Source: an uncultured Bacilli bacterium | GTDB taxonomy: Bacteria > Bacillota_I > Bacilli_A > RF39 > UBA660 | Direction: 5' to 3' | Length of the DNA: 64,000 nt | NCBI GenBank assembly: GCA_934098745.1 | Contig: CAKOPG010000008.1 | Span: forward strand, 6,897-70,896 | Part shown: one piece after another, positions 2,511 through 63,616 of the stretch | How positions within the stretch are numbered: position 1 is the stretch's first letter | How the letters are laid out: every line of letters starts with the position of its first letter | Program-made: the position numbers and the translations under genes | Notes under the pieces: model-generated | What the model was told of the DNA's origin: nothing | What the model saw: the letters and a program-made list of their open reading frames with translations, nothing else | Database searches by the model: none

Positions 2511-4097
2511 TTATTTTTCTAAATATGCGCTAAATTCAATAATATTATTCGTTTTTCTACGTGCAATATATTTTTTTTCTTTCAATTGGTTTAATTTATA
2601 AGCTGCTGCTGCTTTAGCACTATCGTATATTCTTTCATTAGAATTAATACTTCTGATAACATCATTAAGCGTTAAATAATCACGATCTTGTACAATAGGA
2701 TAGGCAAATGATTTAGAAATTATTTGTTTTAACAAACTAGGATTACCTTCCTTATCATCATACTTACGGTGTCTTTCACTAGTTAATTCTACTAATATTT
2801 CCAAAACGTCTTCTAAATTATCATTTATTTCTTCTAAAGAAATATTTTTCTTATTAGCAATATCTATCATAATATTTGTACCAATATCTATCAATGAAAC
2901 ATCATCAGGTTCCTTAATTCTTACTACATCAAACCTTCTTTTCATAGCTGTTCCGGCCATAAATTTTTGGTATTCCACATCAGTAGTAGTACCAATAACC
3001 TTAAGTCCTTGTCTATCTATATATGGTTTCATTATCGTAGCTAAATCATTATCCTTATCTTTACCAGAAATACCGGCTCCATACATTCCATGAATTTCAT
3101 CAATAAATAAAATAGCTCCACTTTTAACACACAACTCTAATATTTCTTTAACTCTTTTTTCAAAGTCACCACGATAGGTTGTTCCTGCCACTAAATCATT
3201 AATTGAAGCTTCTACTATTACTTGGTTCCTTAAAAATTTTGGAACCATATCATTTTGAATTAAATAGGCCAGTTGTTCCACAATAGTAGTTTTTCCACAC
3301 CCCGATGGTCCTACAATTAAAGCTCCTTTATTATCTTCAGATAAAGCATAAATTAATTCTTCTACTTCAGCATCTCTATCATAAGCCGGTGGATATGTGA
3401 ATTCTTGTTCCGTTAAAATAGTACAATACTTTTTAAAATTATTATTTTCATATTCATTCAAAATCGGGCGCCTCCTTTTTTTTGAATTATTGGCTATATT
3501 TTCATCCGTATTTTGACTAGCCCATTTCTCTTGAAGAGAATTCAATTTATTTCTAATAGCAATCATATTTTCTCTAGAAGCCGAAACACTTGGCAATACT
3601 AATTCTTCAAGTGGTTCATAACTAAATACTTCTTTCCATAAATTAAAATTATATTCATCCAGAATGTCTATAAATTTTAGTAAAGAATCATATGGATAAT
3701 GCATTAAACCATAATATAATAATGTTTGGCCATATTTATTATAGGTATTTATATCAAATCCACATTTAATTGCCGCACTTATAGTAAGCTTAAATACCAG
3801 TATATTATATTTTTCATCTCCAATTAGTAAATGAATAAAAGAATTATCTAATGAATTTAATTTACACGGATCAACTTTATTTTCTAAAAGTGCTAATAAA
3901 GCTGTATATTTAGTAGTAACATCATTATATCTTTGATAATTAGCAACTAAATGTAAAATTGTATTTCCATATTCATCAGTATAGTCTAAATGCCCAAAAT
4001 ATTTTTTAAACAATTCAATGATTTTCCCATTACTTTGGCATGTTTTTGATAATATTATCCCTATTTTTTCTCTATCACTTGAAGCCACGCATATCAA
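2511..4097 (-). CDS. AAA+ ATPase with a Clp D1-type module fused to N-terminal ankyrin repeats
   Basis: 528 aa. GNTILHLVA-type ankyrin repeats in the first ~150 aa. Walker A GPSGCGKTT, Walker B ILFIDEIH, and an RRFDVVRIKEP sensor motif resembling ClpA/B/C D1 (RRFQ.V.V.EP). No D2 module. Confidence 0.7.
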   Translation of the reverse strand: MICVASSDREKIGIILSKTCQSNGKIIELFKKYFGHLDYTDEYGNTILHLVANYQRYNDVTTKYTALLALLENKVDPCKLNSLDNSFIHLLIGDEKYNILVFKLTISAAIKCGFDINTYNKYGQTLLYYGLMHYPYDSLLKFIDILDEYNFNLWKEVFSYEPLEELVLPSVSASRENMIAIRNKLNSLQEKWASQNTDENIANNSKKRRRPILNEYENNNFKKYCTILTEQEFTYPPAYDRDAEVEELIYALSEDNKGALIVGPSGCGKTTIVEQLAYLIQNDMVPKFLRNQVIVEASINDLVAGTTYRGDFEKRVKEILELCVKSGAILFIDEIHGMYGAGISGKDKDNDLATIMKPYIDRQGLKVIGTTTDVEYQKFMAGTAMKRRFDVVRIKEPDDVSLIDIGTNIMIDIANKKNISLEEINDNLEDVLEILVELTSERHRKYDDKEGNPSLLKQIISKSFAYPIVQDRDYLTLNDVIRSINSNERIYDSAKAAAAYKLNQLKEKKYIARRKTNNIIEFSAYLEK

Positions 4098-4176
4098 CTC
4101 CTCAAATATGTTTGATATTTTAACATAAAGTTAATTATTTGTAAAGAAAAAATCTGAACGCTTTCATTCAGATTGA

Positions 4177-4446
4177 TTATTTAGTTTCCATTTTGTTTAC
4201 TTTTAAAGTTAAACGAGATTTTTCTCTATCAACTTTGTTTCTATGTACAAGTCCTTTAGATTTAGCATTATCTAAACTTTTAATAGCTAATTTTAAATGT
4301 TTTTCTGCTAATTCCTTATTACCAGCTAATACAGCTTTATCAGTATTCTTAATAGCATTCTTAACTGTTGACTTTAATTGCTCATGAGCCTTAGTAGTTT
4401 TTTCGATTTGTTTAATTTTTTTCTTTGCATTTTTAACATTTGCCAT
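4177..4446 (-). CDS. rpsT: 30S ribosomal protein S20
   Basis: 89 aa, basic. MANVKNAKKKIKQ... N-terminus typical of S20. Conserved rpsT-gpr-spoIIP neighbourhood. Confidence 0.95.
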   Translation of the reverse strand: MANVKNAKKKIKQIEKTTKAHEQLKSTVKNAIKNTDKAVLAGNKELAEKHLKLAIKSLDNAKSKGLVHRNKVDREKSRLTLKVNKMETK

Positions 4447-37311: not shown

Positions 37312-38172
37312 TTATCTATTATTAGGTCGTTTACTGTCATAACCCAATGTCTTAGCAAGATTAGCACTTATTAAATATGAAGAAGGTTTATTACTTTTAA
37401 AATAATTATCTGCTGTCTTTCTATGTTCATCATCTAATAGATTAGCCATAACATTTATCTTTGTTAGTAATCTTAAATTATTATAAGTATCAAAAACGAA
37501 TTGATCATGATTAGTATTCGTTTTATATGGATGATCCTTTAAATGATCAATACAGTCTTCTATTCGGTACAACCAATTATCTTGAAATTCTGTCAAATCT
37601 ATACCTGTAGTAGATTCTATCCAAGATAAATCTAATTTAGGTAAATAATCAAAGTCGTTTTTTACAAATTGATCTTCCAAAAAATCATGGTCTTTTGGAT
37701 ATAAAGTAGACTCAATACTATGTTTTTTTAAAAGTTCATTTTTAAATTTTTCATCTTTTGGGTTATTCGCCCATGTACCTTCAATTAAAGCACCTGTTTT
37801 ATTATGGATTTCCATTTCTAATAATGACATTATAATATCATCGAAAGAATGGCCGTCATAGACTGTAATCATATCGGGATCCTTAGTAATTAGTTTTCTT
37901 CTTTCGGATAATTTTCTTTCACAACGAACTCTTCCTTGTACTAGTTCTGGATGATTATTTAATTCCAGTAGGAGCGTATCTATATCTTGTACGGTAAGAG
38001 ACTGGTATAATCTTTTTTCCTCTTGAATAATTTTATATAAATTTAACTTATCCTCATATATTCTCTTTGCATCGCTAGTTTCTAAACTTTTAGTAGCTGC
38101 TAATGTATAATATTTCTTTTCTACCAAATAAGAAACTTGACGTAATCTATTAAGAACATCTATTACTTTCAT
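37312..38172 (-). CDS. unknown-function protein, paralogue 1 of 3
   Basis: 286 aa. Shares blocks with the two neighbours: LYK.I..E, R.ERKL.ER, IPxxDxxWI. Confidence 0.6.
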   Translation of the reverse strand: MKVIDVLNRLRQVSYLVEKKYYTLAATKSLETSDAKRIYEDKLNLYKIIQEEKRLYQSLTVQDIDTLLLELNNHPELVQGRVRCERKLSERRKLITKDPDMITVYDGHSFDDIIMSLLEMEIHNKTGALIEGTWANNPKDEKFKNELLKKHSIESTLYPKDHDFLEDQFVKNDFDYLPKLDLSWIESTTGIDLTEFQDNWLYRIEDCIDHLKDHPYKTNTNHDQFVFDTYNNLRLLTKINVMANLLDDEHRKTADNYFKSNKPSSYLISANLAKTLGYDSKRPNNR

Positions 38173-38240
38173 ACCATAACCTCTTTCTATAATACATAAT
38201 TATTATACATGTAGTAAAGAAAAAAAGCAAGTAAAAGAAC

Positions 38241-39047
38241 CTAAATCAATCTAAGTTCTCGTACCTTGACTTTTATTTCCTCTTTAATACTATCCGGTAA
38301 ATATAATCCCTCACTATAATGATATTTTGCCAGTTTTTCTAGATGATTACCATCCAGATAAGAAATAAGTACCGAAGCTTCAGTTTCTTCTTTCAAAATA
38401 TTATATACATCATCATATTCTGTAGATGGAATACCTTTAATTTTTCTTAAAAACATAATCGTATCTATAAGTGCATTAAATAAATAATCCTCTATATCGT
38501 TTGAATCTACACCTGTTTTCTTGATTAACCAATTAAAATCATATACCGGAATATTTTCAAACCCATAATAAATACCTTGCATTTCATGATAAGTTGTTCT
38601 AATAGGATTACAATAAGTATCATATCTATAATGTTCTCGTAAATCTTCTTTCATTTTACCTTCAAAAGTGTCTATTCTTTTACCAAGTAAATCATGTGTC
38701 TGAATATCTATAACTGCATCTATAAGTTCTCCCATCGAATAATCTCTATAAGTAATTAGTCCCTTTTTCTTCCCCTCTAAATAACATTTTCTTTCATTTA
38801 ATTTTTGTCTACATCTATCAGATACCATAGCAAGTTCAGAATGAATACTTAATTCTTCAAGTAAAGCAATTATTTCAGACATATTAAGACTATTAAAAAC
38901 CATTTTTTCATGCATAATAGCTTTATACAAATTCTTCATACATTCGTCTTGCTTATCACTACCACCAATACTACTTAAATAAAGTTCTTCATAACTTTCA
39001 TTAGTTTTCCCCGTTAAATATATTAATTTATATAATAATTCCTCCAT
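38241..39047 (-). CDS. unknown-function protein, paralogue 2 of 3
   Basis: 268 aa. LYKAIMHEK, CRQKLNERK, VIDIQTHDLLGKRI and YGFENIPVYDFNWLI blocks shared with 39057..39908. Confidence 0.6.
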   Translation of the reverse strand: MEELLYKLIYLTGKTNESYEELYLSSIGGSDKQDECMKNLYKAIMHEKMVFNSLNMSEIIALLEELSIHSELAMVSDRCRQKLNERKCYLEGKKKGLITYRDYSMGELIDAVIDIQTHDLLGKRIDTFEGKMKEDLREHYRYDTYCNPIRTTYHEMQGIYYGFENIPVYDFNWLIKKTGVDSNDIEDYLFNALIDTIMFLRKIKGIPSTEYDDVYNILKEETEASVLISYLDGNHLEKLAKYHYSEGLYLPDSIKEEIKVKVRELRLI

Positions 39048-39056
39048 AAAATCACC

Positions 39057-39908
39057 TTAATTCATTTTCCTTTTAATTAACTTTCTGATACTATCATCAA
39101 TAATTTTATTTTTTATCGAATAATTTTTTTCGTATTCATTCCTAATTTTTAATACGTATTCCTTACTTAATAAGTTTAATATCATTTCAAATTCTATAAC
39201 CGTCGTCAAATAAGCATATGTATCTTCCATAAAATGATCATTATCAGCACTAATAATATATGGTTTCTTCACCAACGCATCCAAAATATTCTTAAGTCGT
39301 TTAAATAAAAATCTTTGTAGTTCATGATAATTTATTTTAACATTTTCTGCTATCCAATTAAAATCATATTCTGGAATATTTTCAAATCCATATATAATAG
39401 CTAAATCTTCTGAAAAATTATTTAAAGAAGGATAAATATATGTATCTTCCAAGTGTTCTTGCTTTAATCCGTCATGCAATATTTCTTCCATACTATTAAG
39501 AGGCTTTGTCTCCATAATTCTTTTTCCTACTAGTTTATGAACTTGAATATCTATAACACTATTAATAACATCATTTAAAGAATATTTTTTATAAGTACTT
39601 CTAATATTACCTTCAGTAAGCAGACATCTTTTTCTCTCAGTTAATTTTCTTTCTACTCGCCATATTCCATCACCATAATTATCTTTATTCAAATTAAGAT
39701 ATTCAAGTAACTTTTCAACCTCTTCTTTAGATAAATCATTATATGCTTTTCTTTCATACATAATAGCTTTATATAGTCTACGTTCTATTAAAGATATCTC
39801 TTTCTTCATACATCCAGCAGCTACTAATTCATCATAAATCATTATAACATTTAATGAATATCCCCTTAATTTATCAATTATTTCTTTAAGCACAATATCT
39901 TTATCCAT
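39057..39908 (-). CDS. unknown-function protein, paralogue 3 of 3
   Basis: 283 aa. LYKAIMYERK, VERKLTERK, VIDIQVHKLVGKRI and YGFENIPEYDFNWIA. Only 9 nt separate it from the next paralogue. Confidence 0.6.
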   Translation of the reverse strand: MDKDIVLKEIIDKLRGYSLNVIMIYDELVAAGCMKKEISLIERRLYKAIMYERKAYNDLSKEEVEKLLEYLNLNKDNYGDGIWRVERKLTERKRCLLTEGNIRSTYKKYSLNDVINSVIDIQVHKLVGKRIMETKPLNSMEEILHDGLKQEHLEDTYIYPSLNNFSEDLAIIYGFENIPEYDFNWIAENVKINYHELQRFLFKRLKNILDALVKKPYIISADNDHFMEDTYAYLTTVIEFEMILNLLSKEYVLKIRNEYEKNYSIKNKIIDDSIRKLIKRKMN

Positions 39909-42961: not shown

Positions 42962-43020
42962 TATATCATTTTCCAAAAGCTTTTTTTAATAGAGCTTTTT
43001 TCTATTCCTATAATTATCCT

Positions 43021-43057
43021 TATCTTACGTCAGTCCCTTTGGGATAAATAAAAAAGA
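43021..43057 (+). repeat. copy A of a conserved ~30-bp intergenic motif (TTACGTYAGTYCC-NNN-GGGATAA)
   Basis: ttatcttacgtcagtccctttgggataaataaaaaag is near-identical to 63580..63616 and, in reverse complement, to 59186..59214 and 61423..61453. Confidence 0.7.
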
Positions 43058-48382: not shown

Positions 48383-48478
48383 AAAAAAACTACCAAAGCA
48401 GTTGTTCTTACTAGAGTAAGTATTTAGGCCAAAGGCTTTTATTTTAACTCTCTATGTCATCTTAAATGGTATTAAGAC
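48383..48478 (-). ncRNA. tracrRNA: tracrRNA
   Basis: The minus strand reads GUUGUCUUAAUACCAUUUAAGAUGACAUAGAGAGUUAAAAUAAAAGCCUUUGGCCUAAAUACUUACUCUAGUAAGAACAACUGCUUUGGUAGUUUUUUU. It has a 23-nt perfect complement to the repeat core (48453..48475). The GUUAAAAUAA nexus is identical to the S. pyogenes tracrRNA, as I recall that sequence. Also present: the CUUAC-UCUA-GUAAG hairpin, a U7 tail, and its own promoter TTGACT-N17-TATTAT (-35 at 48508..48513, -10 at 48485..48490). Confidence 0.8.
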
Positions 48479-48520
48479 AACTACATAATATCACTTTTTA
48501 GAAAGGAAGTCAATTAGTAA

Positions 48521-51500
48521 ATGAAAAATTATAGTATAGGATTAGATATTGGTACAACCTCAGTTGGTTGGGCAATAATTGATAATAGTACATTCAAACT
48601 AATAAAAAAAGGAAACAAAAGACAAAGTATGTGGGGAGTAAGACTCTTTGATGAAGCAATATCCGCTGAAGGAAGAAGAAGTAGTAGAAGCTCTAGAAGA
48701 AGATACGAAAGAAGAAGACAAAGAATTAAATTATTACAAGAAATATTCAAAGGTGAAATAACAAAAGTTGATGCTGACTTTTTCAAAAAATTACATGACA
48801 GTTTTTATTCAACAGAAGATAAAACCAATAAAAAAGCAATATTAACTAATTATGATAAAATTAATATTTTTGGAAATAATAATAGAAAGCTAACTGAAAA
48901 GAAATATCCGACAATATACCATATTAGAAATAAAATTATTAACAGTAATGAAAAAGAAGATATTAGATTAATTTACTTAGCAATACATCATATCATTAAA
49001 TATCGTGGTAATTTCTTATATAATAGTGATAATTTTAGTGTTAATAACTTAAATATTAAAGAAAAATTACAAGAAACCTTTACTGAAATAAACTCTTTAT
49101 GTAAAGAAATAAATTTTAATTATGATGAAGTAAATGATAACTTATATGAGAAATTAGCAAAAGCATTATTAGAAAAATCAATAAATGATAAAAAAGTTTT
49201 AATAAAAGAATTATTAACAAATTACTTCAGCAAAGATTTCACAAATGAATTTATTAAATTAATTTTAGGTAATCAATTCAATATCTCAAAATTATTTAAT
49301 ATAGACTTAGAAGAAGAAATTAAACTTAATTTTAAAGGAACAGACTATGAAGATAAATATTCTGAACTAGAAAAAGCCCTTGAAGATAAAATATCAGTAT
49401 TAAATTTACTCAAAGAATTATATGATATGCTATTCTTAAAAAATTTATTTGGTAATAGTAGTGAAACAAATATATCATCCCTTATGATTAATAGATATGA
49501 TAAACATCATTTAGATTTAATGTTTTTAAAAAGATTACTTAAATATGATAAAAACATATATAAAGAATTTTTTAAAGATAAAAACAAAGATACTTCAAAA
49601 GAAGAATTGTGCATATATTCAAAATATGTAAATAACAAGATTACTTATGATGAATTTATAAATAAACTAAATAAATCATTAGAAAAAATATTTGATAACA
49701 ACATACCATTAAAATTAAAGGAAGAATACAATAAAGTTAAAATTGACATAGAAAATGGAACATTTTTACCTAAAATAACAAACCCTGATAATGGTAAATA
49801 TCCATATCAATTAAACAAAGATGAACTAATAAAAATAATCGAATCACAAGGGAAGTATTATAACTTTTTAAATGAGAAAGTAATTATAAATGGTAAACTT
49901 AAATATAAGCTAGTGCAACTACTAGAATTTAGAATTCCATATTATGTTGGACCACTTAATACTAATACAAATAAAAAAAATGTTTGCAATAAAAATGCCT
50001 GGCTAATTAAAAAAGATAATTATGCAAAAATTACACCATTCAATTTTGATGAAGTAATAGATAAAGAACAAACCGCAGAACAATTTATCACAAGAATGAT
50101 ATCTAACTGTACATATTTAATAAACGAAAAAGCCATTCCTAGTAATTCTATACTATATTCAAAATATAAAGTTTTAAATGAACTTAAACAAATTAAAATA
50201 AACAATGCAAAATTACCAATAGATTTACAACATAAAATATATGAAGAATTATTTTTAACTACCAACAAAACAATAACAGAAAAAATGTTTATTGACTTTA
50301 TAAAGAAGACAAACGAATACTCGATGTATAATGATATATTATTAATCGAAGGGTATTCAGATGATAAAAAGTTTGCTAATAATATGAAAAGCTATTATGA
50401 TTTCTTTGGAGAAAATGGTATCTTTAATAATACAGATTATACTACTGAAGATGCTGAAGAAATAATTAAATGGATAACTATCTTTGAAGACAAAGATATA
50501 TTAGAGCAAAAAGTAAGAAATAATTATCCAAAATTAAACGAACAACAAATTAAACAAATCATTACAAAAAAATATCGTGGATGGAGTAATCTTTCTAAAA
50601 AGTTACTTACAGGAATAATTTATAAAGATAAAATAACAGAAAATCCCAAATCTATAATGGATTTAATGTGGGAAACAAGTGAAAACTTTATGCAAATTAT
50701 GTTTAATAAAGAATATAAGTTTCAAGATAAAATTAATAAACTTAATGTAGTAAAAGATATAAATAAAATTAATTATTCACTAGTAGAAAACCTTGCTACC
50801 TCTCCAGCTACTAAAAAAGGAATATATCAAGCCTTAAAAGTAGTTGAAGAGTTGATTAACTATATGGGATATAGCCCTGAAAATATTATAATAGAAATGG
50901 CTAGAAGTGAAGAACTAAAGCAAAGAAAAGATAATCGAAAAGAATACCTAAAGAAAATATATATAAATTGTAAAAAAGATATTGATAACTATAATTCACT
51001 CTTTGCCGAATTAGAAAAAAAAGACAAAATAGATTCCGAAAAATTATTCTTATATTTTATCCAATTAGGTAGAAGCATCTATTCAAAAGAACCCTTAGAT
51101 ATAAATAATCTAGAATCATATGAAGTCGATCACATAATACCAAGAACTTTGATTAAAGATGATTCAATTGATAATAAAGTCTTAGTATTAAAAGAGGAAA
51201 ATCAAGAAAAAGCAGCAAGTTTTGTATTGCCAAGACATTTTAGAACAAACGAGATGATACAATGGTGGAAACATCTAAAAGACTTAAACCTAATTAGTTC
51301 AAAAAAATTTAATAACTTATGTCGAGATTATTATTCAGAAAAAGATATTGAAGGATTTATTAATAGACAATTAGTAGAAACAAGACAAATAGCTAAACAT
51401 GTAGCAAATATCTTAAATAATTTTTACAAAAGCACTAACATAATTTATTTACACGCCAACTTATCCAGTAATTATAGAGAAAAGTATGAATTGTTTAAAT

Positions 51501-52690
51501 ATCGAGAATTAAATGATTTCCATCATGCACATGACGCCTATTTAGCAAGTGTACTTGGTATATATCAAAAAAAATATCTCAATAAATCTACTGATTTTAA
51601 TAAATTAAAAGCATTGCAAAAAAAATTAAGTACTGCAGGAAAATATAATGAATTAAAATATGGTTATGTCATTAACAGTATCAACAATGAAGTAGCACGT
51701 TTTAATGAAGATACCGGTGAAATATTATTTGATGCTGACTATTTTAATGATACAATTAAAAACACTTTATATCAAAACGACATATTAATAAGTAAAAAAA
51801 CAGAGATTAAAACAGACAGATTTTATAAAGAAACAATATATAAAAAACATGATAAAAAAGTAAAATTCAATTTAAAAGAAAACTTAGATCCTTATTTATA
51901 TGGTGGATATACTGAAACAAACTATTCATACATGAAATTAATTGAATATCAAAAGAAAAATAAAAAAATTAATTCCTTAATTGGTATTCCTGTCTTACTA
52001 GAAAAAAACAAAAATAAAGAAAAACTAATTGATAACTACATTAAAAAAGCTTTCTCAATAGATAACTATATAGTAAAAAAAGCCAAATTACCATTTAATT
52101 TATTGCTTAATTATAAAAATCATAACTGTATAATTACTGGTTGCGCTACAGCCTCAGCAGAACTTGTCAATGCCAAAGAATTTACTTTAACAAAAAAAGA
52201 ACAAATAGAATACAAATACTTATTAAATTATATCTTCAATAATAAATATCCTAATAAAGAAAAATATCTAAAAGAAAATAAATTAAATGATATGAATTAT
52301 ATAGATTATCAAGAACATTGTAAAAAAGTATTTAATAGCCAAATAAATAACTTATTTACATTGATAATAGAACGTATTAAAACCAATTATCCTCTTTATA
52401 ATTCAATATATGAAAAATTAAACTTAGTTAAAAACTCCAAAGAATTTGCTAATTTACCACTTGAAATAAGTAATGAAGAAGCCAGAAAAGGTAATATATC
52501 AAAAACAATTATAATCAATCAATTATTCATAATGTTAAAGTGTAATCCAACCAATGTCAATTTAGAAAGACTAAATAAAACCGTTAAATTTAATAATAGA
52601 GTTGGCAGAACAAGTAGTGTTAATATTACATCAGCAACTATAATAAATAAATCAGTAACAGGTTTAAAGGAAAGAAAATATGAGTTTTAG
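48521..52690 (+). CDS. cas9: type II CRISPR-associated endonuclease Cas9
   Basis: 1389 aa. RuvC-I YSIGLDIGTTSVGWAII, Arg-rich bridge helix RRSSRSSRRRYERRRQRI, RuvC-II IIIEMARS, HNH YEVDHIIPRTLIKDDSIDNKVLV, RuvC-III DFHHAHDAYL. Confidence 0.97.
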   Translation: MKNYSIGLDIGTTSVGWAIIDNSTFKLIKKGNKRQSMWGVRLFDEAISAEGRRSSRSSRRRYERRRQRIKLLQEIFKGEITKVDADFFKKLHDSFYSTEDKTNKKAILTNYDKINIFGNNNRKLTEKKYPTIYHIRNKIINSNEKEDIRLIYLAIHHIIKYRGNFLYNSDNFSVNNLNIKEKLQETFTEINSLCKEINFNYDEVNDNLYEKLAKALLEKSINDKKVLIKELLTNYFSKDFTNEFIKLILGNQFNISKLFNIDLEEEIKLNFKGTDYEDKYSELEKALEDKISVLNLLKELYDMLFLKNLFGNSSETNISSLMINRYDKHHLDLMFLKRLLKYDKNIYKEFFKDKNKDTSKEELCIYSKYVNNKITYDEFINKLNKSLEKIFDNNIPLKLKEEYNKVKIDIENGTFLPKITNPDNGKYPYQLNKDELIKIIESQGKYYNFLNEKVIINGKLKYKLVQLLEFRIPYYVGPLNTNTNKKNVCNKNAWLIKKDNYAKITPFNFDEVIDKEQTAEQFITRMISNCTYLINEKAIPSNSILYSKYKVLNELKQIKINNAKLPIDLQHKIYEELFLTTNKTITEKMFIDFIKKTNEYSMYNDILLIEGYSDDKKFANNMKSYYDFFGENGIFNNTDYTTEDAEEIIKWITIFEDKDILEQKVRNNYPKLNEQQIKQIITKKYRGWSNLSKKLLTGIIYKDKITENPKSIMDLMWETSENFMQIMFNKEYKFQDKINKLNVVKDINKINYSLVENLATSPATKKGIYQALKVVEELINYMGYSPENIIIEMARSEELKQRKDNRKEYLKKIYINCKKDIDNYNSLFAELEKKDKIDSEKLFLYFIQLGRSIYSKEPLDINNLESYEVDHIIPRTLIKDDSIDNKVLVLKEENQEKAASFVLPRHFRTNEMIQWWKHLKDLNLISSKKFNNLCRDYYSEKDIEGFINRQLVETRQIAKHVANILNNFYKSTNIIYLHANLSSNYREKYELFKYRELNDFHHAHDAYLASVLGIYQKKYLNKSTDFNKLKALQKKLSTAGKYNELKYGYVINSINNEVARFNEDTGEILFDADYFNDTIKNTLYQNDILISKKTEIKTDRFYKETIYKKHDKKVKFNLKENLDPYLYGGYTETNYSYMKLIEYQKKNKKINSLIGIPVLLEKNKNKEKLIDNYIKKAFSIDNYIVKKAKLPFNLLLNYKNHNCIITGCATASAELVNAKEFTLTKKEQIEYKYLLNYIFNNKYPNKEKYLKENKLNDMNYIDYQEHCKKVFNSQINNLFTLIIERIKTNYPLYNSIYEKLNLVKNSKEFANLPLEISNEEARKGNISKTIIINQLFIMLKCNPTNVNLERLNKTVKFNNRVGRTSSVNITSATIINKSVTGLKERKYEF

Positions 52691-52859: not shown

Positions 52860-53353
52860 TGTTTTATATTTATGTTATCTCAAATAGTATTGAAACTAAT
52901 CATGCAAGTGAGTAGTCCCAATCATCGTTTTAGATTTATGTCATCTTGAATGGTATTAAAACACACTCGATTTCACTTGGATAATCAGGGCTGTTTTAGA
53001 TTTATGTCATCTTAAATGGTATTAAAACAAATATAGCAAAGTGTTTTGCTTGTGGTGTGTTTTAGATTTATGTCATCTTGAACAATATTAAAACACTTCG
53101 TAAGATACGTACAACACCAATAGCGTTTTAAATCTATGTCACCTTTAATTGGTATTAAAACTTGTTTTAATACTTATATAAAAGCACCTATGTTTTATAT
53201 TTATGTCATCTTATATAGAATTTACATCAAAAATTTATAATCTTTACACGATTTAGATTGCCCTGTTTTAGATTTATGCTATCTTAAATGGTATTAAACT
53301 AATCTTTCTACTTATGCAAATTGGGAAGTGTTTTATATTTATGTCATTTTAAA
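52860..53353 (+). CRISPR. type II CRISPR array, 8 repeats / 7 spacers, heavily degenerate
   Basis: The 36-nt repeat is GTTTTAGATTTATGTCATCTTAAATGGTATTAAAAC. Repeats start at 52860, 52926, 52992, 53058, 53124 (37 nt), 53191, 53264 (35 nt) and 53329 (truncated). Six spacers are 30 nt and one is 37 nt. Only the repeat at 52992 is consensus and 52926 differs by 1 nt; the others carry 2 to more than 6 changes. Confidence 0.95.
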
Positions 53354-59115: not shown

Positions 59116-59185
59116 TGTACCACCTTAATATAATTATAACTTATCTTACTTGTGAAAGTCAATAATTATAATTAATTTACAATAT

Positions 59186-59214
59186 TTATTATCCCCGAGG
59201 GACTAACGTAATAT
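59186..59214 (-). repeat. copy B of the conserved ~30-bp intergenic motif
   Basis: The plus strand reads ttattatccccgagggactaacgtaatat, i.e. the reverse complement of the copy A/D consensus. Confidence 0.65.
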
Positions 59215-59248
59215 TTGTTGCTAACTTATCTATCTAGTTAATAATTAG

Positions 59249-61371: not shown

Positions 61372-61422
61372 AACATCACAAATTAATTATATCTTAATAA
61401 ATAAAATATTGCAATAATATAA

Positions 61423-61453
61423 CTATTATCCCTAAGGGACTAACGTAATATCT
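61423..61453 (-). repeat. copy C of the conserved ~30-bp intergenic motif
   Basis: The plus strand reads ctattatccctaagggactaacgtaatatct. Confidence 0.65.
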
Positions 61454-61470
61454 ATTACTAACATATATAT

Positions 61471-61501
61471 TAAAAATACCAATATAATCTATATTGGTAT
61501 T
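61471..61501 (-). terminator. rho-independent terminator of CDS 61546..63360
   Basis: Perfect 12-bp stem aataccaatata / tatattggtatt with a 3-nt loop, followed on the minus strand by TTTTT. Confidence 0.7.
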
Positions 61502-61545
61502 AACTTCTTTTTATAATATAGTAATTTAAGAGAAGTCGTTTACGC

Positions 61546-63360
61546 TTAAGCGAAGCACGCCACCGCACGGAAACCTTCGTTCACGTACGCAGCGCCGTTA
61601 GTGCCGCTGAAGTAGAAGACACCGGCATTGGCACCATTGTAACAGTAACCACCACGACCGAACCACGGGCTCGTGGCAGAAACAAAGTACGTGTAATCTC
61701 CATACCAGCTACTTGTTTCTGATAGACTTCGTCCATAACAATAGCCTCCACTACATGCCGTTAAAGCACTAATGGTTGTGCCACTACTTGCTTTGTATAC
61801 TTCATAATACTTAGATTCCGGAAAAGCTATTCCATCGGTTTTGGAAGTACCATTAGTTCCTAGTAAGCCATTAAAACCTGAATTTAATGAAGTAGAAAGA
61901 CCACTCCATAAGGTACCATCGGAATTAGCAAACACTCCCATCACTCTTTCCCATGCTCCACCAGACATATCAAAGATTCCTGATATATTACCAGTGGTAC
62001 TTTGCGGATATATTGAAGATGAACCATAAGTTATTCCGCATGTTGCACTATTACTAGCATTGACCGTACTGGCTCCACACCCGGTAAGTGTTTTTCTACT
62101 ATTCCAGTAATTATTAATTCTTACTTCGCTGTTTATCCCATACTTAGAGTGCGACAGATAAGCTACTGCTCCCCACTCATTATTCTTCATCATATGAGAA
62201 TTAGTAGTTGTGGTTAATCCATATGTATTACTACCAGAGAATGTTGTAGTTCCATTACTAAGTGTTCCCCCAGCAAATTTTAAACCTACAATAAAAGCTG
62301 TTGATATATTTTGATCAGTTAATGATGCCACATTAGGCTTTATCGTCGGAGTCGTCGCATTTCCGGTAGTTTCAAATTTGCCTACCCAAATACCATTTAA
62401 TTCCGTATCCCCAAATGTAAATGCCGGATGTGTTAAATACTCTCCAATTTGTGTTCCTATTGACTTTGTCGTATCTTTATCTTCAAAAACAATCTCTATC
62501 TCTTGTTCTTGTCCCTGTGCACTAGTACCTACAGTCCATATTTTATACTTATATCTCGGTATCCAGACATAATATGTCAAGATACTATCTTCTGGTATTG
62601 TCACCCCTGTTGTATTTAGATAACTACTCCTTGACGATTCTGTTACCAGTACGGCATTCGCCCATTGTTGTTCATCATAATTATACCACGATGCATCACT
62701 ACTAGATATTGTTGTTACTGTTCCATTATCAGCTATTGTTACCGGAATCATGCCACTATCTAATTCTGGAGCACTAGGTTTAACCGGTGCTTGATCTATA
62801 CAACTACCCCCAAGAGATAGGCTAAAAGTTTGATTCATCGTATCACTCGATGTTTCTTCTTTATCTAACCATATCCATAAATAATATGTATCTGTTGTTG
62901 TACTAGAATATTCTTTTGAACTTAATAATCTTACTCTATTATTTGTTGCTTTTCCGGTAAATGTTCCTGATGATACCGGATTATCACAACTATCAGCACT
63001 TGTTGTTAAAGCATATCTAAAATTATTACTGTTAGTTAAACCGGTTCCTATACTATTTATCGTTAACCATAAATCCATATAAATAGTCTTACCACTCTTA
63101 GTAATTGTTGGTGTTACTTTTACTTCTCTCTTTATAGCATACTTACTATTTGTACATTCACATGGTGCTAAAGTTATATCATTAGACGTTATATTACCGC
63201 CACCATCAGCTGCACAACTAAAATCACCCGTTACTGTAAATACCACATTAGTTTTCTCATTTTCAGATGTTTGCCATGTAAAATATGCAAAAGTACTACC
63301 TACAATTACAAATATTAATGATAATACCACTAAAATAATAGACACTCTTTTATTCTTCAT
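61546..63360 (-). CDS. secreted protein with a TasA/SipW-type signal peptide and an FGE/C-type-lectin-like C-terminal region; candidate DGR target
   Basis: 604 aa. N-terminal MKNKRVSIILVVLSLIFVIVGSTFAYFT resembles SipW-cognate signal peptides. C-terminal ...WFGRGGYCYNG...NEGFRAVACFA fits the RGG...GFR end of FGE/CLec-fold domains. Confidence 0.75.
   Translation of the reverse strand: MKNKRVSIILVVLSLIFVIVGSTFAYFTWQTSENEKTNVVFTVTGDFSCAADGGGNITSNDITLAPCECTNSKYAIKREVKVTPTITKSGKTIYMDLWLTINSIGTGLTNSNNFRYALTTSADSCDNPVSSGTFTGKATNNRVRLLSSKEYSSTTTDTYYLWIWLDKEETSSDTMNQTFSLSLGGSCIDQAPVKPSAPELDSGMIPVTIADNGTVTTISSSDASWYNYDEQQWANAVLVTESSRSSYLNTTGVTIPEDSILTYYVWIPRYKYKIWTVGTSAQGQEQEIEIVFEDKDTTKSIGTQIGEYLTHPAFTFGDTELNGIWVGKFETTGNATTPTIKPNVASLTDQNISTAFIVGLKFAGGTLSNGTTTFSGSNTYGLTTTTNSHMMKNNEWGAVAYLSHSKYGINSEVRINNYWNSRKTLTGCGASTVNASNSATCGITYGSSSIYPQSTTGNISGIFDMSGGAWERVMGVFANSDGTLWSGLSTSLNSGFNGLLGTNGTSKTDGIAFPESKYYEVYKASSGTTISALTACSGGYCYGRSLSETSSWYGDYTYFVSATSPWFGRGGYCYNGANAGVFYFSGTNGAAYVNEGFRAVACFA
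61549..61695 (-). other. candidate DGR variable region (VR)
   Basis: These are the last 49 sense codons of the gene. G+C is 77/130 in 61551..61680. Only one codon (GAA) ends in A. Most codons are NNC/NNT, in sharp contrast with the upstream codons of the same gene. Confidence 0.55.
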
Positions 63361-63379: not shown

Positions 63380-63402
63380 CCCTAAGTATAATACTTAAGG
63401 AC
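63380..63402. repeat. left inverted repeat (IRL) of the candidate invertible promoter element
   Basis: ccctaagtataatacttaaggac is the perfect 23/23 reverse complement of 63550..63572. It lies 20 nt upstream of the start codon at 63360. Confidence 0.85.
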
Positions 63403-63491
63403 CCTTTTGTATGCATATGAATATCTTACATTATAAGGCTTTAAGACACATTTTAAAGAATATAAAAGTAGATAAAAAGTTAAATTTTGTA

Positions 63492-63520
63492 TTTACAGAA
63501 AATAAGTGTTATGCTATAAT
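63492..63520 (+). promoter_or_regulatory. near-consensus sigma-A promoter inside the IR-bounded segment, currently facing away from the gene
   Basis: TTTACA (63492..63497), 17-nt spacer ending in TGc, TATAAT (63515..63520). Confidence 0.65.
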
Positions 63521-63549
63521 TTATATAGGTTAAATAAAGATAGAGGTGT

Positions 63550-63572
63550 GTCCTTAAGTATTATACTTAGGG
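63550..63572. repeat. right inverted repeat (IRR); on the plus strand it also forms a hairpin plus T-run
   Basis: gtccttaagtattatacttaggg is internally palindromic (about 10-bp stem, 3-nt loop). It is followed by caTTTTTT, so it acts as a terminator for the promoter in its present orientation. Confidence 0.8.
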
Positions 63573-63579
63573 GCATTTT

Positions 63580-63616
63580 TTATCTTACGTCAGTTCCTCT
63601 GGGATAAATAAAAAAG
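63580..63616 (+). repeat. copy D of the conserved ~30-bp intergenic motif
   Basis: ttatcttacgtcagttcctctgggataaataaaaaag differs from copy A (43021..43057) at 2 of 37 positions (35/37 identical). Confidence 0.7.

Follow-up and report, generated by a model that had tools for sequence, protein, structure and literature searches.

A secreted-protein gene of an uncultured Bacilli bacterium ends in a probable variable region served by a remote, chromosomal diversity-generating retroelement

We analyzed a 64,000-nucleotide (nt) stretch of DNA from an uncultured Bacilli bacterium (contig CAKOPG010000008.1, positions 6,897 to 70,896), hereafter the window, and conclude that its positions 61551-61695 are very probably (we put the probability at about 0.88) the variable region (VR) of a gene targeted remotely by a chromosomal diversity-generating retroelement (DGR), the core of which lies on a separate contig, L016, beside three tandem paralogous targets. 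The VR ends a minus-strand open reading frame (ORF) at 61546..63360, hereafter the target gene, which encodes a secreted or anchored protein of 604 amino acids (aa). A DGR variable region had been proposed at this position from the window sequence alone (the original prediction), and that proposal is now supported by a template repeat (TR) with an adenine bias, by Avd and reverse transcriptase (RT) genes, and by a fold resembling that of TaqVP, the DGR variable protein of Thermus aquaticus (PDB 5vf4; PMC6328139). Established here are the adenine-biased match between TR and VR, the set of DGR genes, the predicted fold, and a cassette that is hypervariable among paralogues; the steps of the mechanism, including retrohoming as in the Bordetella phage model, are inferred from established DGR biology. 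Composition alone sufficed to find this remote DGR target, as an A-depleted, G+C-rich 3′ cassette of ~145 nt in an A+T-rich genome.

A compositional island at the 3′ end of the target gene

The last 49 sense codons of the target gene form a sharp compositional island. Our recount of the G+C content of 61551..61680 gave 77 of 130 nt, identical to the figure in the original prediction, and the most G+C-rich 130-nt stretch of the entire 64 kb is 61550-61679 (0.60), with a runner-up at 0.46 and a window mean of 0.266. Likewise, we reproduced the observations that a single codon (GAA) among the 49 ends in A and that all remaining adenines of the cassette occupy codon position 1 or 2. The third positions comprise 1 A, 22 C, 9 G, and 17 T, and upstream 49-codon segments of the same gene (step 25, wholly outside the cassette) each hold 14 to 28 A-ending codons; relative to the 38% of A at third positions expected from the rest of the gene, the deficit has a binomial P of 2e-9.

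Repeat finding and word-7 blastn detected no second copy of the cassette in the window, nor is there a paralogue of the target gene within the 64 kb. Pfam scans, together with the annotation of the window ends, identified no RT, Avd, or recombinase domain in window ORFs of at least 100 aa. More specifically, the scans covered ORFs of at least 100 aa at 11 to 58 kb plus four ORFs at 57.9 to 63.4 kb, and the ends were covered by the precomputed Pfam annotation of loci L004 and L006 to L009. On the contig beyond the window, no RT was present within ~4.3 kb past ftsZ or within ~7 kb past window position 1. As already noted in the original prediction, the 64 kb thus hold no TR, Avd, or RT, which makes the target gene a remote target.

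The variable region and its template repeat

The protein encoded by the target gene (identical to P0001) has more than 7,400 homologues. In the ENA sample ERZ28614532, the window locus corresponds to scaffold_508, with a protein (P0002) that differs by one residue, and the same sample also carries paralogues elsewhere, namely P0014 and P0003 in tandem (L001) as well as P0007, P0033, and a third gene (L005). Because L001 breaks off where a third paralogue begins, the contig encoding P0005 was examined as its continuation, which led to L016 (scaffold_10219 of ERZ28614532).

A TR lies at about 2033-2177 of L016, on the same strand as the rest of the DGR core, and matches window positions 61551..61695 (minus strand) over 145 nt, i.e., the last 48 to 49 codons of the target gene; the limits originally proposed (61549..61695) lie within 2 nt of this TR-homologous block. 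The VR of the window differs from the TR at 21 positions, 16 of which are TR adenines; with 35 of the 145 TR nucleotides being A, the hypergeometric p is 5e-8. The substitutions at these adenines comprise nine A>G, six A>T, and one A>C. The other VRs behave similarly, with 20 of 22 mismatches at TR adenines for P0005, the target in cis, 15 of 18 for P0014, and 18 of 24 for P0003. The TR encodes 16 Asn (AAY) codons and has a G+C content of 51%, compared with 56-60% for the VRs and 27% for the genome. The high G+C content and the scarcity of A in the cassette are therefore explained, since the TR itself is 51% G+C, its invariant positions avoid A, and 16 of its 35 adenines are replaced.

The homology between VR and TR stops exactly at the 3′ end, where the VR goes on with CTTAAGCG and the TR with TGACTACA. 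Immediately before this point, a 22-nt A-free, G+C-rich segment (TTCCGTGCGGTGGCGTGCTTCG; 61551..61572, minus strand) is identical in TR and VR, no mismatch occurring beyond TR index 134, and a 5′ segment, CTTTGTTTCTGCCACG, is also common to both. The TR and VR of DGRs share G+C-rich 3′ segments of 20-40 bp (Wu et al. 2018, PMC5758913), and the 22-nt end is likely the counterpart of this invariant 3′ G+C-rich segment, also termed the initiation of mutagenic homing (IMH) segment. In addition, alignments revealed a VR-specific 3′ flank, AAGCG-NNNN-CGACTT (61533..61547, minus strand), which follows the VRs of the window gene, P0003, P0014, and P0005 and is absent after the TR. Its stem halves are kept between copies and its loop varies (TAAA, TCAG, TTAG); the flank may represent a weak, putative target-site hairpin.

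The VR of P0007 (L005 1620-1900) is a partial copy, in which the cassette extends only up to ...CGTGCGGT. The 22-nt 3′ segment lacks its final ~11 nt, the conserved 3′ flank is missing as well, and differences from the TR persist at 20 adenine positions. P0007 may be a former target that has lost its 3′ recognition end.

The retroelement core on L016

The core genes of L016 are arranged on one strand in the order target (P0005; 35-1846), TR, MutS-like protein, Avd, and RT. The MutS-like (MSL) protein (2467-2769) matches MutS domain I (PF01624, 25.8 bits versus a cut-off of 20.6), and the Avd protein (2762-3115) matches PF22296 (bAvd) with 71.1 bits (cut-off 40); against NF033474 ("DGR protein Avd"), the latter scores 77.2 bits, just below the cut-off of 80. 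The RT (3103-4146) matches PF00078 and carries the motifs IGNYTSQ and YMDD, which are of the type found in the DGR clade of RTs (motif 4, [I/L/V]GxxxSQ; YxDD). Its best PDB match, over the full length, is 8ub7, a 328-aa chain named "Reverse transcriptase" (E=8.7e-47), which is far better than any match to group II intron RTs (E=5.5e-14) or retron RTs; we take this chain to be bRT of the Bordetella phage. Both the RT and the Avd ORFs are intact, with the catalytic motifs of the RT kept. Thus, the template beside an avd-like gene and an RT with DGR-type motifs that had been anticipated for the complete genome is found on L016.

The DGR genes on L016 have a G+C content of 21%, like the host, and the flanks consist of housekeeping genes (methyltransferase, nuclease, sigma factor, and RNase HII), indicating that the element is chromosomal and long resident. 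These data also bear on the possibility that the cassette is simply a foreign G+C-rich block, or the product of a codon constraint imposed by the lectin fold, evolving by ordinary substitutions. Such an origin would account for the sharp compositional step and would agree with the lack of a Pfam match for the window protein. However, G+C richness is confined to the TR/VR pair, which shows that the cassette is not a foreign block, and the substitutions are adenine-specific rather than ordinary. Moreover, the paralogue P0033 (L005 9067-10836) has the same fold tail (PWF-RGG...GFR) in host-like A+T-rich codons, without a TR-derived cassette, and hence the fold does not need the cassette. We therefore rejected a foreign block on the basis of the TR match and the host-like DGR genes, and a codon-usage constraint on the basis of the P0033 tail, and we regard both as hardly credible. 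As P0033 illustrates, DGR targets are only a subset of the family.

L016 and scaffold_508 derive from one ENA sample, the last 55 nt of L001 are exactly the first 55 nt of L016, and P0125, which is one residue from P0005 (outside the VR), is present in NCBI, as is the window protein P0001. From the shared metagenome, the contig overlap, the host-like G+C content, and the presence of both proteins in NCBI, we infer that the DGR and the window belong to one genome. Judged from the contig ends, VR and RT are at least ~13 kb apart. The original prediction had left open whether the VR is a remote target or an orphan; the TR and RT on L016 speak for the former, and the latter survives in the sense of inactivity, since the cassettes of orthologues are invariant (see below).

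Variable regions among paralogues and relatives

Four paralogues besides the window gene carry the cassette, and all five VRs are unique. In the window gene, P0003, P0014, and P0007, this G+C-rich cassette is nearly base-identical, and the differences fall in separate columns, which mostly come in pairs and occupy the first and second codon positions. The window gene and P0003 are 100% identical over ~700 nt (62440-61750) and then drop to 83% within the cassette, such that over ~850 nt they differ in the cassette only. Ordinary divergence cannot explain this step in identity.

By setting every variable VR column to A, we built a predicted TR, which was AAY-rich and proved to be nearly equal to the actual TR of L016. 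A protein search with its translation returned three short Asn-rich TR-like ORFs, from other organisms only. In one of these settings, L014 (from a biogas metagenome), a homologous target gene is followed by the TR-like ORF at a distance of 150 nt, and 17 of the 20 mismatches of this cis VR-TR pair are at TR adenines. When the L014 TR was compared with four VRs, 28 of the 33 variable columns coincided with its adenines, versus 8 of the 79 invariant columns (Fisher p=2e-14).

Further searches for related templates yielded little. Other frames of the predicted TR and the N terminus of an MSL protein, used as queries, returned only another foreign TR array, and repeat finding and word-7 blastn detected no TR in L001. 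An exact scan of viral contigs with A-free VR patterns gave 0 matches, blastn of the VR against GenBank phages gave none, and a family alignment found no relative among viral contigs. Among genome contigs, the A-free VR pattern had two matches, in G+C-rich Thermomonas and Desulfovibrio metagenome-assembled genomes, which were presumed to be due to chance and were not inspected. Among metagenome contigs, it had one match, to a relative (L015) without a TR. This relative (2706-4337, from another metagenome) is a family member with a type IV pilin-like N terminus (MKMNKRGFTLIELLAVIVIL...) rather than a hydrophobic anchor, indicative of a lectin-fold module that has been combined with different display domains.

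In addition, relatives contain tandem arrays of TR-like units without a target-gene body (L012 1245-2469, L013 167-1467, and protein P0159), which have a period of 346-383 nt and at least four copies. A TATAAT box lies upstream of each unit in L012, and flanking blocks of the L013 units are also found at the genuine TR units in L014 and L016. The A content of the array units (0.23-0.24) is between that of the TR (0.32) and those of the VRs (0.15-0.17), and TR-adenine columns show only a mild excess of variation among the units (odds ratio 3.6, p=0.004). The DGR literature that we consulted for comparison contained no description of tandem TR-unit arrays.

Arrays of this kind, with promoter-proximal TR/VR-like units lacking a gene body, raise the question of whether cassettes are exchanged without reverse transcription, i.e., by recombination or gene conversion from silent donor copies, as in systems of the pilS or vlsE type, and the long stretches over which the paralogue bodies are homogenised would fit such exchange. 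Yet recombination does not predict that the VR-TR differences are concentrated at TR adenines; furthermore, the five VRs are all unique, a DGR-type RT and Avd adjoin the TR, and no silent array was found in the window, L001, or L016. Given the adenine-site bias and the RT and Avd genes beside the TR, we rejected cassette exchange by recombination alone, which we consider very improbable.

Predicted structure of the target protein

The 604-aa protein starts with an N-terminal hydrophobic helix (residues 4-25), followed by beta-rich N-terminal and middle domains and, at the C terminus, by a C-type-lectin/FGE-like domain whose last part is the VR. An AlphaFold2 model had a mean predicted local distance difference test (pLDDT) score of 81, and the top match of this model in a Foldseek search against the PDB was TaqVP (5vf4; E=1.7e-6, probability 1.00), with 16-17% sequence identity and a template modeling (TM) score of 0.46-0.48 normalised to the target. 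Consistently, 5vf4 was the sole match of the family profile among PDB sequences (E=0.034). The window protein has ~200 N-terminal residues beyond those of TaqVP, which weakly resemble TasA (8aur, E=0.027). Neither Pfam nor NCBIfam has a match to the window protein itself; its homologues P0015, P0019, and P0025 pass the gathering score of PF03781 (FGE-sulfatase). The C-type-lectin/FGE fold expected from the RGG...GFR layout of the C terminus is thus backed by both structure prediction and homologues.

Mechanism and relation to known systems

If the element acts as known DGRs do, the TR would be transcribed, and a complex of RT and Avd would copy the TR RNA into cDNA, misincorporating opposite template adenines. 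The cDNA would then replace the VR of any gene bearing a matching G+C-rich 3′ end, and up to 16 AAY codons would be rewritten in the ligand-binding face of the C-type-lectin-fold domain.

Since DGRs as such, their remote targets, and cassettes of the MSL type have all been described (PMC5758913), the locus adds a further case to an established kind of system. Among its closest parallels is the chromosomal DGR of Treponema denticola, which has seven non-adjacent targets (Wu et al. 2018, PMC5758913). As in that system, one TR/RT core goes together with several C-type-lectin/FGE-fold paralogues, in tandem and with at least one elsewhere; the VR is at the 3′ end of the ORF and differs from the TR mostly by A-to-N changes; G+C-rich invariant segments flank the mutagenic region; and the element is chromosomal and not phage-associated, with housekeeping flanks that include RNase HII and a sigma factor. 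Unlike the Treponema system, the host here is a spore-forming gut Firmicute of 27% G+C that is represented by metagenome assemblies only, the N-terminal domains of the targets differ from those of the Treponema lipoproteins, and each target is preceded by an invertible-promoter-like element.

DGR cassettes with a MutS-like gene plus avd, including the Legionella DGR, are classed as Architecture D, and Avd is present in all MSL-containing DGRs (PMC5758913). The order of target, TR, MSL, avd, and RT on one strand of L016 resembles this architecture, as do the small size of the MSL protein, its match to MutS domain I, and the Avd alongside; it differs in that the MSL frame of L016 is broken at an A7 run. 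With respect to the DGR of Bordetella phage BPP-1 (Mtd/TR/Avd/bRT), the RT is a full-length homologue of 8ub7, a member of the Avd family is present, the TR is AAY-rich with its 16 Asn codons, and the VR is at the C terminus of a C-type-lectin-fold protein. In contrast to BPP-1, the element is cellular, has several targets and an extra MSL gene, targets a secreted bacterial protein rather than a tail-fibre tip, and has no convincing GC-rich hairpin or cruciform after the window VR. The locus adds to the known DGRs one from a gut Firmicute with at least five candidate target VRs that share a cassette and with an MSL-Avd-RT core.

Past or present diversification

Hypervariability of the cassette is seen only between paralogues. 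To compare orthologues between assemblies, we used the pairs window/P0002, P0004/P0124, P0005/P0125, and P0014/P0130 as well as the P0008 cluster, bearing in mind that the strains are few and closely related and that consensus assemblies hide minority variants. Several findings weigh against an active, linked system. In the orthologue pairs, the VR is unchanged and 1 to 8 residues differ elsewhere, and three assemblies of the locus agree completely in the window VR; variation of the cassette across strains, which the original prediction proposed to look for, was therefore not seen, and there is no sign of current hypermutation. The accompanying expectation of a template matching everywhere except at its adenines held for 16 of the 21 mismatches and failed for the remaining 5, which may reflect either drift of the TR or VR since the last homing or a donor that was another TR allele. 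In L016, the MSL frame is split (about 2393-2470) by a frameshift at an A7 run (about 2425-2431), with the N-terminal "MSKIYMEYLKKK" and the remainder of the domain in different frames; a one-base repair of the frame restores an N terminus resembling that of the L014 homologue, and the split may mean that the gene is a pseudogene or is switched by slippage, or it may stem from faulty assembly. No stable BPP-1-like hairpin was detected after the window VR, where DNA folding was no better than that of shuffled sequences (z=0.28). Finally, the DGR and the window are on separate contigs, with no physical linkage between them.

These observations would suit a VR that is a fossil, i.e., a cassette written by the DGR in the past at a locus, or by an element, that is no longer diversified, with a slowly decaying tail. 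Such an account, to which we assign somewhat less than an even chance, draws on the invariance of orthologous VRs despite differences elsewhere, on the five non-adenine mismatches (4.5% divergence at non-A sites), on the frameshifted MSL accessory gene, on the missing hairpin, and on a strong promoter that faces away from the target gene (described below). Against it stand the intact RT and Avd ORFs with the RT catalytic motifs kept, a 22-nt 3′ end that is still identical to the TR, and a cassette whose G+C content has remained at 56-60%, against 27% for the genome. In addition, all differences between the window gene and P0003 over ~850 nt lie in the cassette, so that diversification must have been recent relative to paralogue homogenisation, and the small, closely related set of consensus assemblies limits what invariance can convey. 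With regard to the VR as the remote target of a chromosomal DGR, the invariant VRs, the five non-adenine mismatches, and the frameshifted MSL gene together indicate that diversification, which is demonstrated historically, is past or episodic. The stability of the VR across strains also illustrates that a clean DGR signature does not equate to ongoing hypermutation.

An invertible-promoter-like element upstream of the target gene

Directly upstream of the target gene lies an element (63380..63572) made up of a 147-nt core between perfect inverted repeats of 23 nt, one at 63380-63402 and the other at 63550-63572. The proximal repeat arm ends 19 nt before the ATG of the target gene, and the repeat pair is 100% complementary, with no further copy in the window. 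In a promoter scan of the region, the top sigma-70-like candidate fell inside the core (TTTACA-17-TGcTATAAT, 11 of 12 matches; 63492..63520, plus strand). This promoter faces away from the target gene, so that the orientation in the window would correspond to a putative OFF state; a weaker promoter (10 of 12 matches; 63457-63430) faces the target gene.

The element is present upstream of every family gene examined, including copies at L001 7366-7557, 9791-9984, and 12251-12444 and at L005 8855-9048 and 10850-11041. Upstream of the tandem paralogues of L001, the core occurs in opposite orientations (146 of 146 nt identical as reverse complement), and both orientations also occur in L005. The 29-mer containing the promoter faces P0005 and the third gene of L005, and it faces away from P0003 and the window gene. 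Three contigs break inside the repeats of the element, and the window locus was found in one orientation only, in two assemblies. No recombinase domain was detected among the window ORFs scanned by Pfam. A XerC/D-type integrase is encoded just past window position 1 (L006 9078-9983), and nothing ties it to the element.

Gut bacteria have invertons that control surface proteins (for example PMC11602134 and PMC11892184). The upstream elements look like a family of such invertible promoters, in that short perfect inverted repeats surround a promoter segment of ~147 bp directly upstream of a surface-protein gene and both orientations are seen among copies at paralogous loci; they differ from established invertons in that no recombinase was identified for the window element and that the element is known here from assembled sequence alone. 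Expression of the target gene is probably also switched by this candidate invertible promoter. This arrangement suggests, though it does not demonstrate, that DGR targets can also be phase-variable and, if so, two major bacterial diversification strategies would meet at one locus. Our literature search found no paper that couples invertons to DGR targets, an absence that is not proof.

As a speculative extension, which we rate well short of even odds, variation could be layered in two ways: a multigene family of secreted lectin-fold proteins diversified both in cis and in trans by a single MSL-type DGR on the chromosome, with each copy turned ON or OFF by its own invertible promoter, such that a cell would display, at any one time, one or a few members out of a hypermutated repertoire, and with the TR units of relatives multiplied into separately promoted TR-RNA arrays (L012, L013, and P0159).

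Downstream of the target gene, a terminator-like hairpin with a 12-bp stem, followed by a T run, is located at 61475..61501 (minus strand), and the 91-nt stretch that holds it folds with a z score of -3.8 relative to shuffled sequences.

Other features of the window

An intergenic repeat (TTATCCCNAAGGGACTAACGTAA...) occurs in four copies, at 59182-59233 and 61419-61470 (plus strand) and, inverted, at 43020-43056 and 63580-63616, with inverted copies flanking the target gene on both sides. This repeat may be terminator-like or resemble repetitive extragenic palindromic (REP) elements.

The window also carries a type II CRISPR-Cas locus, comprising a Cas9 ORF of 1389 aa (48521-52690) and an array (52861-53301) of ~7 repeats of 36-37 nt spaced ~66 nt, with a degenerate copy at 48443-48479. 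At 13690-37255 lies a large gene cluster for capsule or exopolysaccharide biosynthesis, which includes Polysacc_synt_2, DegT, sugar transferases, glycosyltransferases, a pyruvyl transferase, a flippase, Wzz, CpsB, and LytR. Next to it, at 37312-39908 (minus strand), lie three tandem paralogous ORFs of 268-286 aa without a Pfam match, a region with internal repeats at 38526-38621 and 39351-39446.

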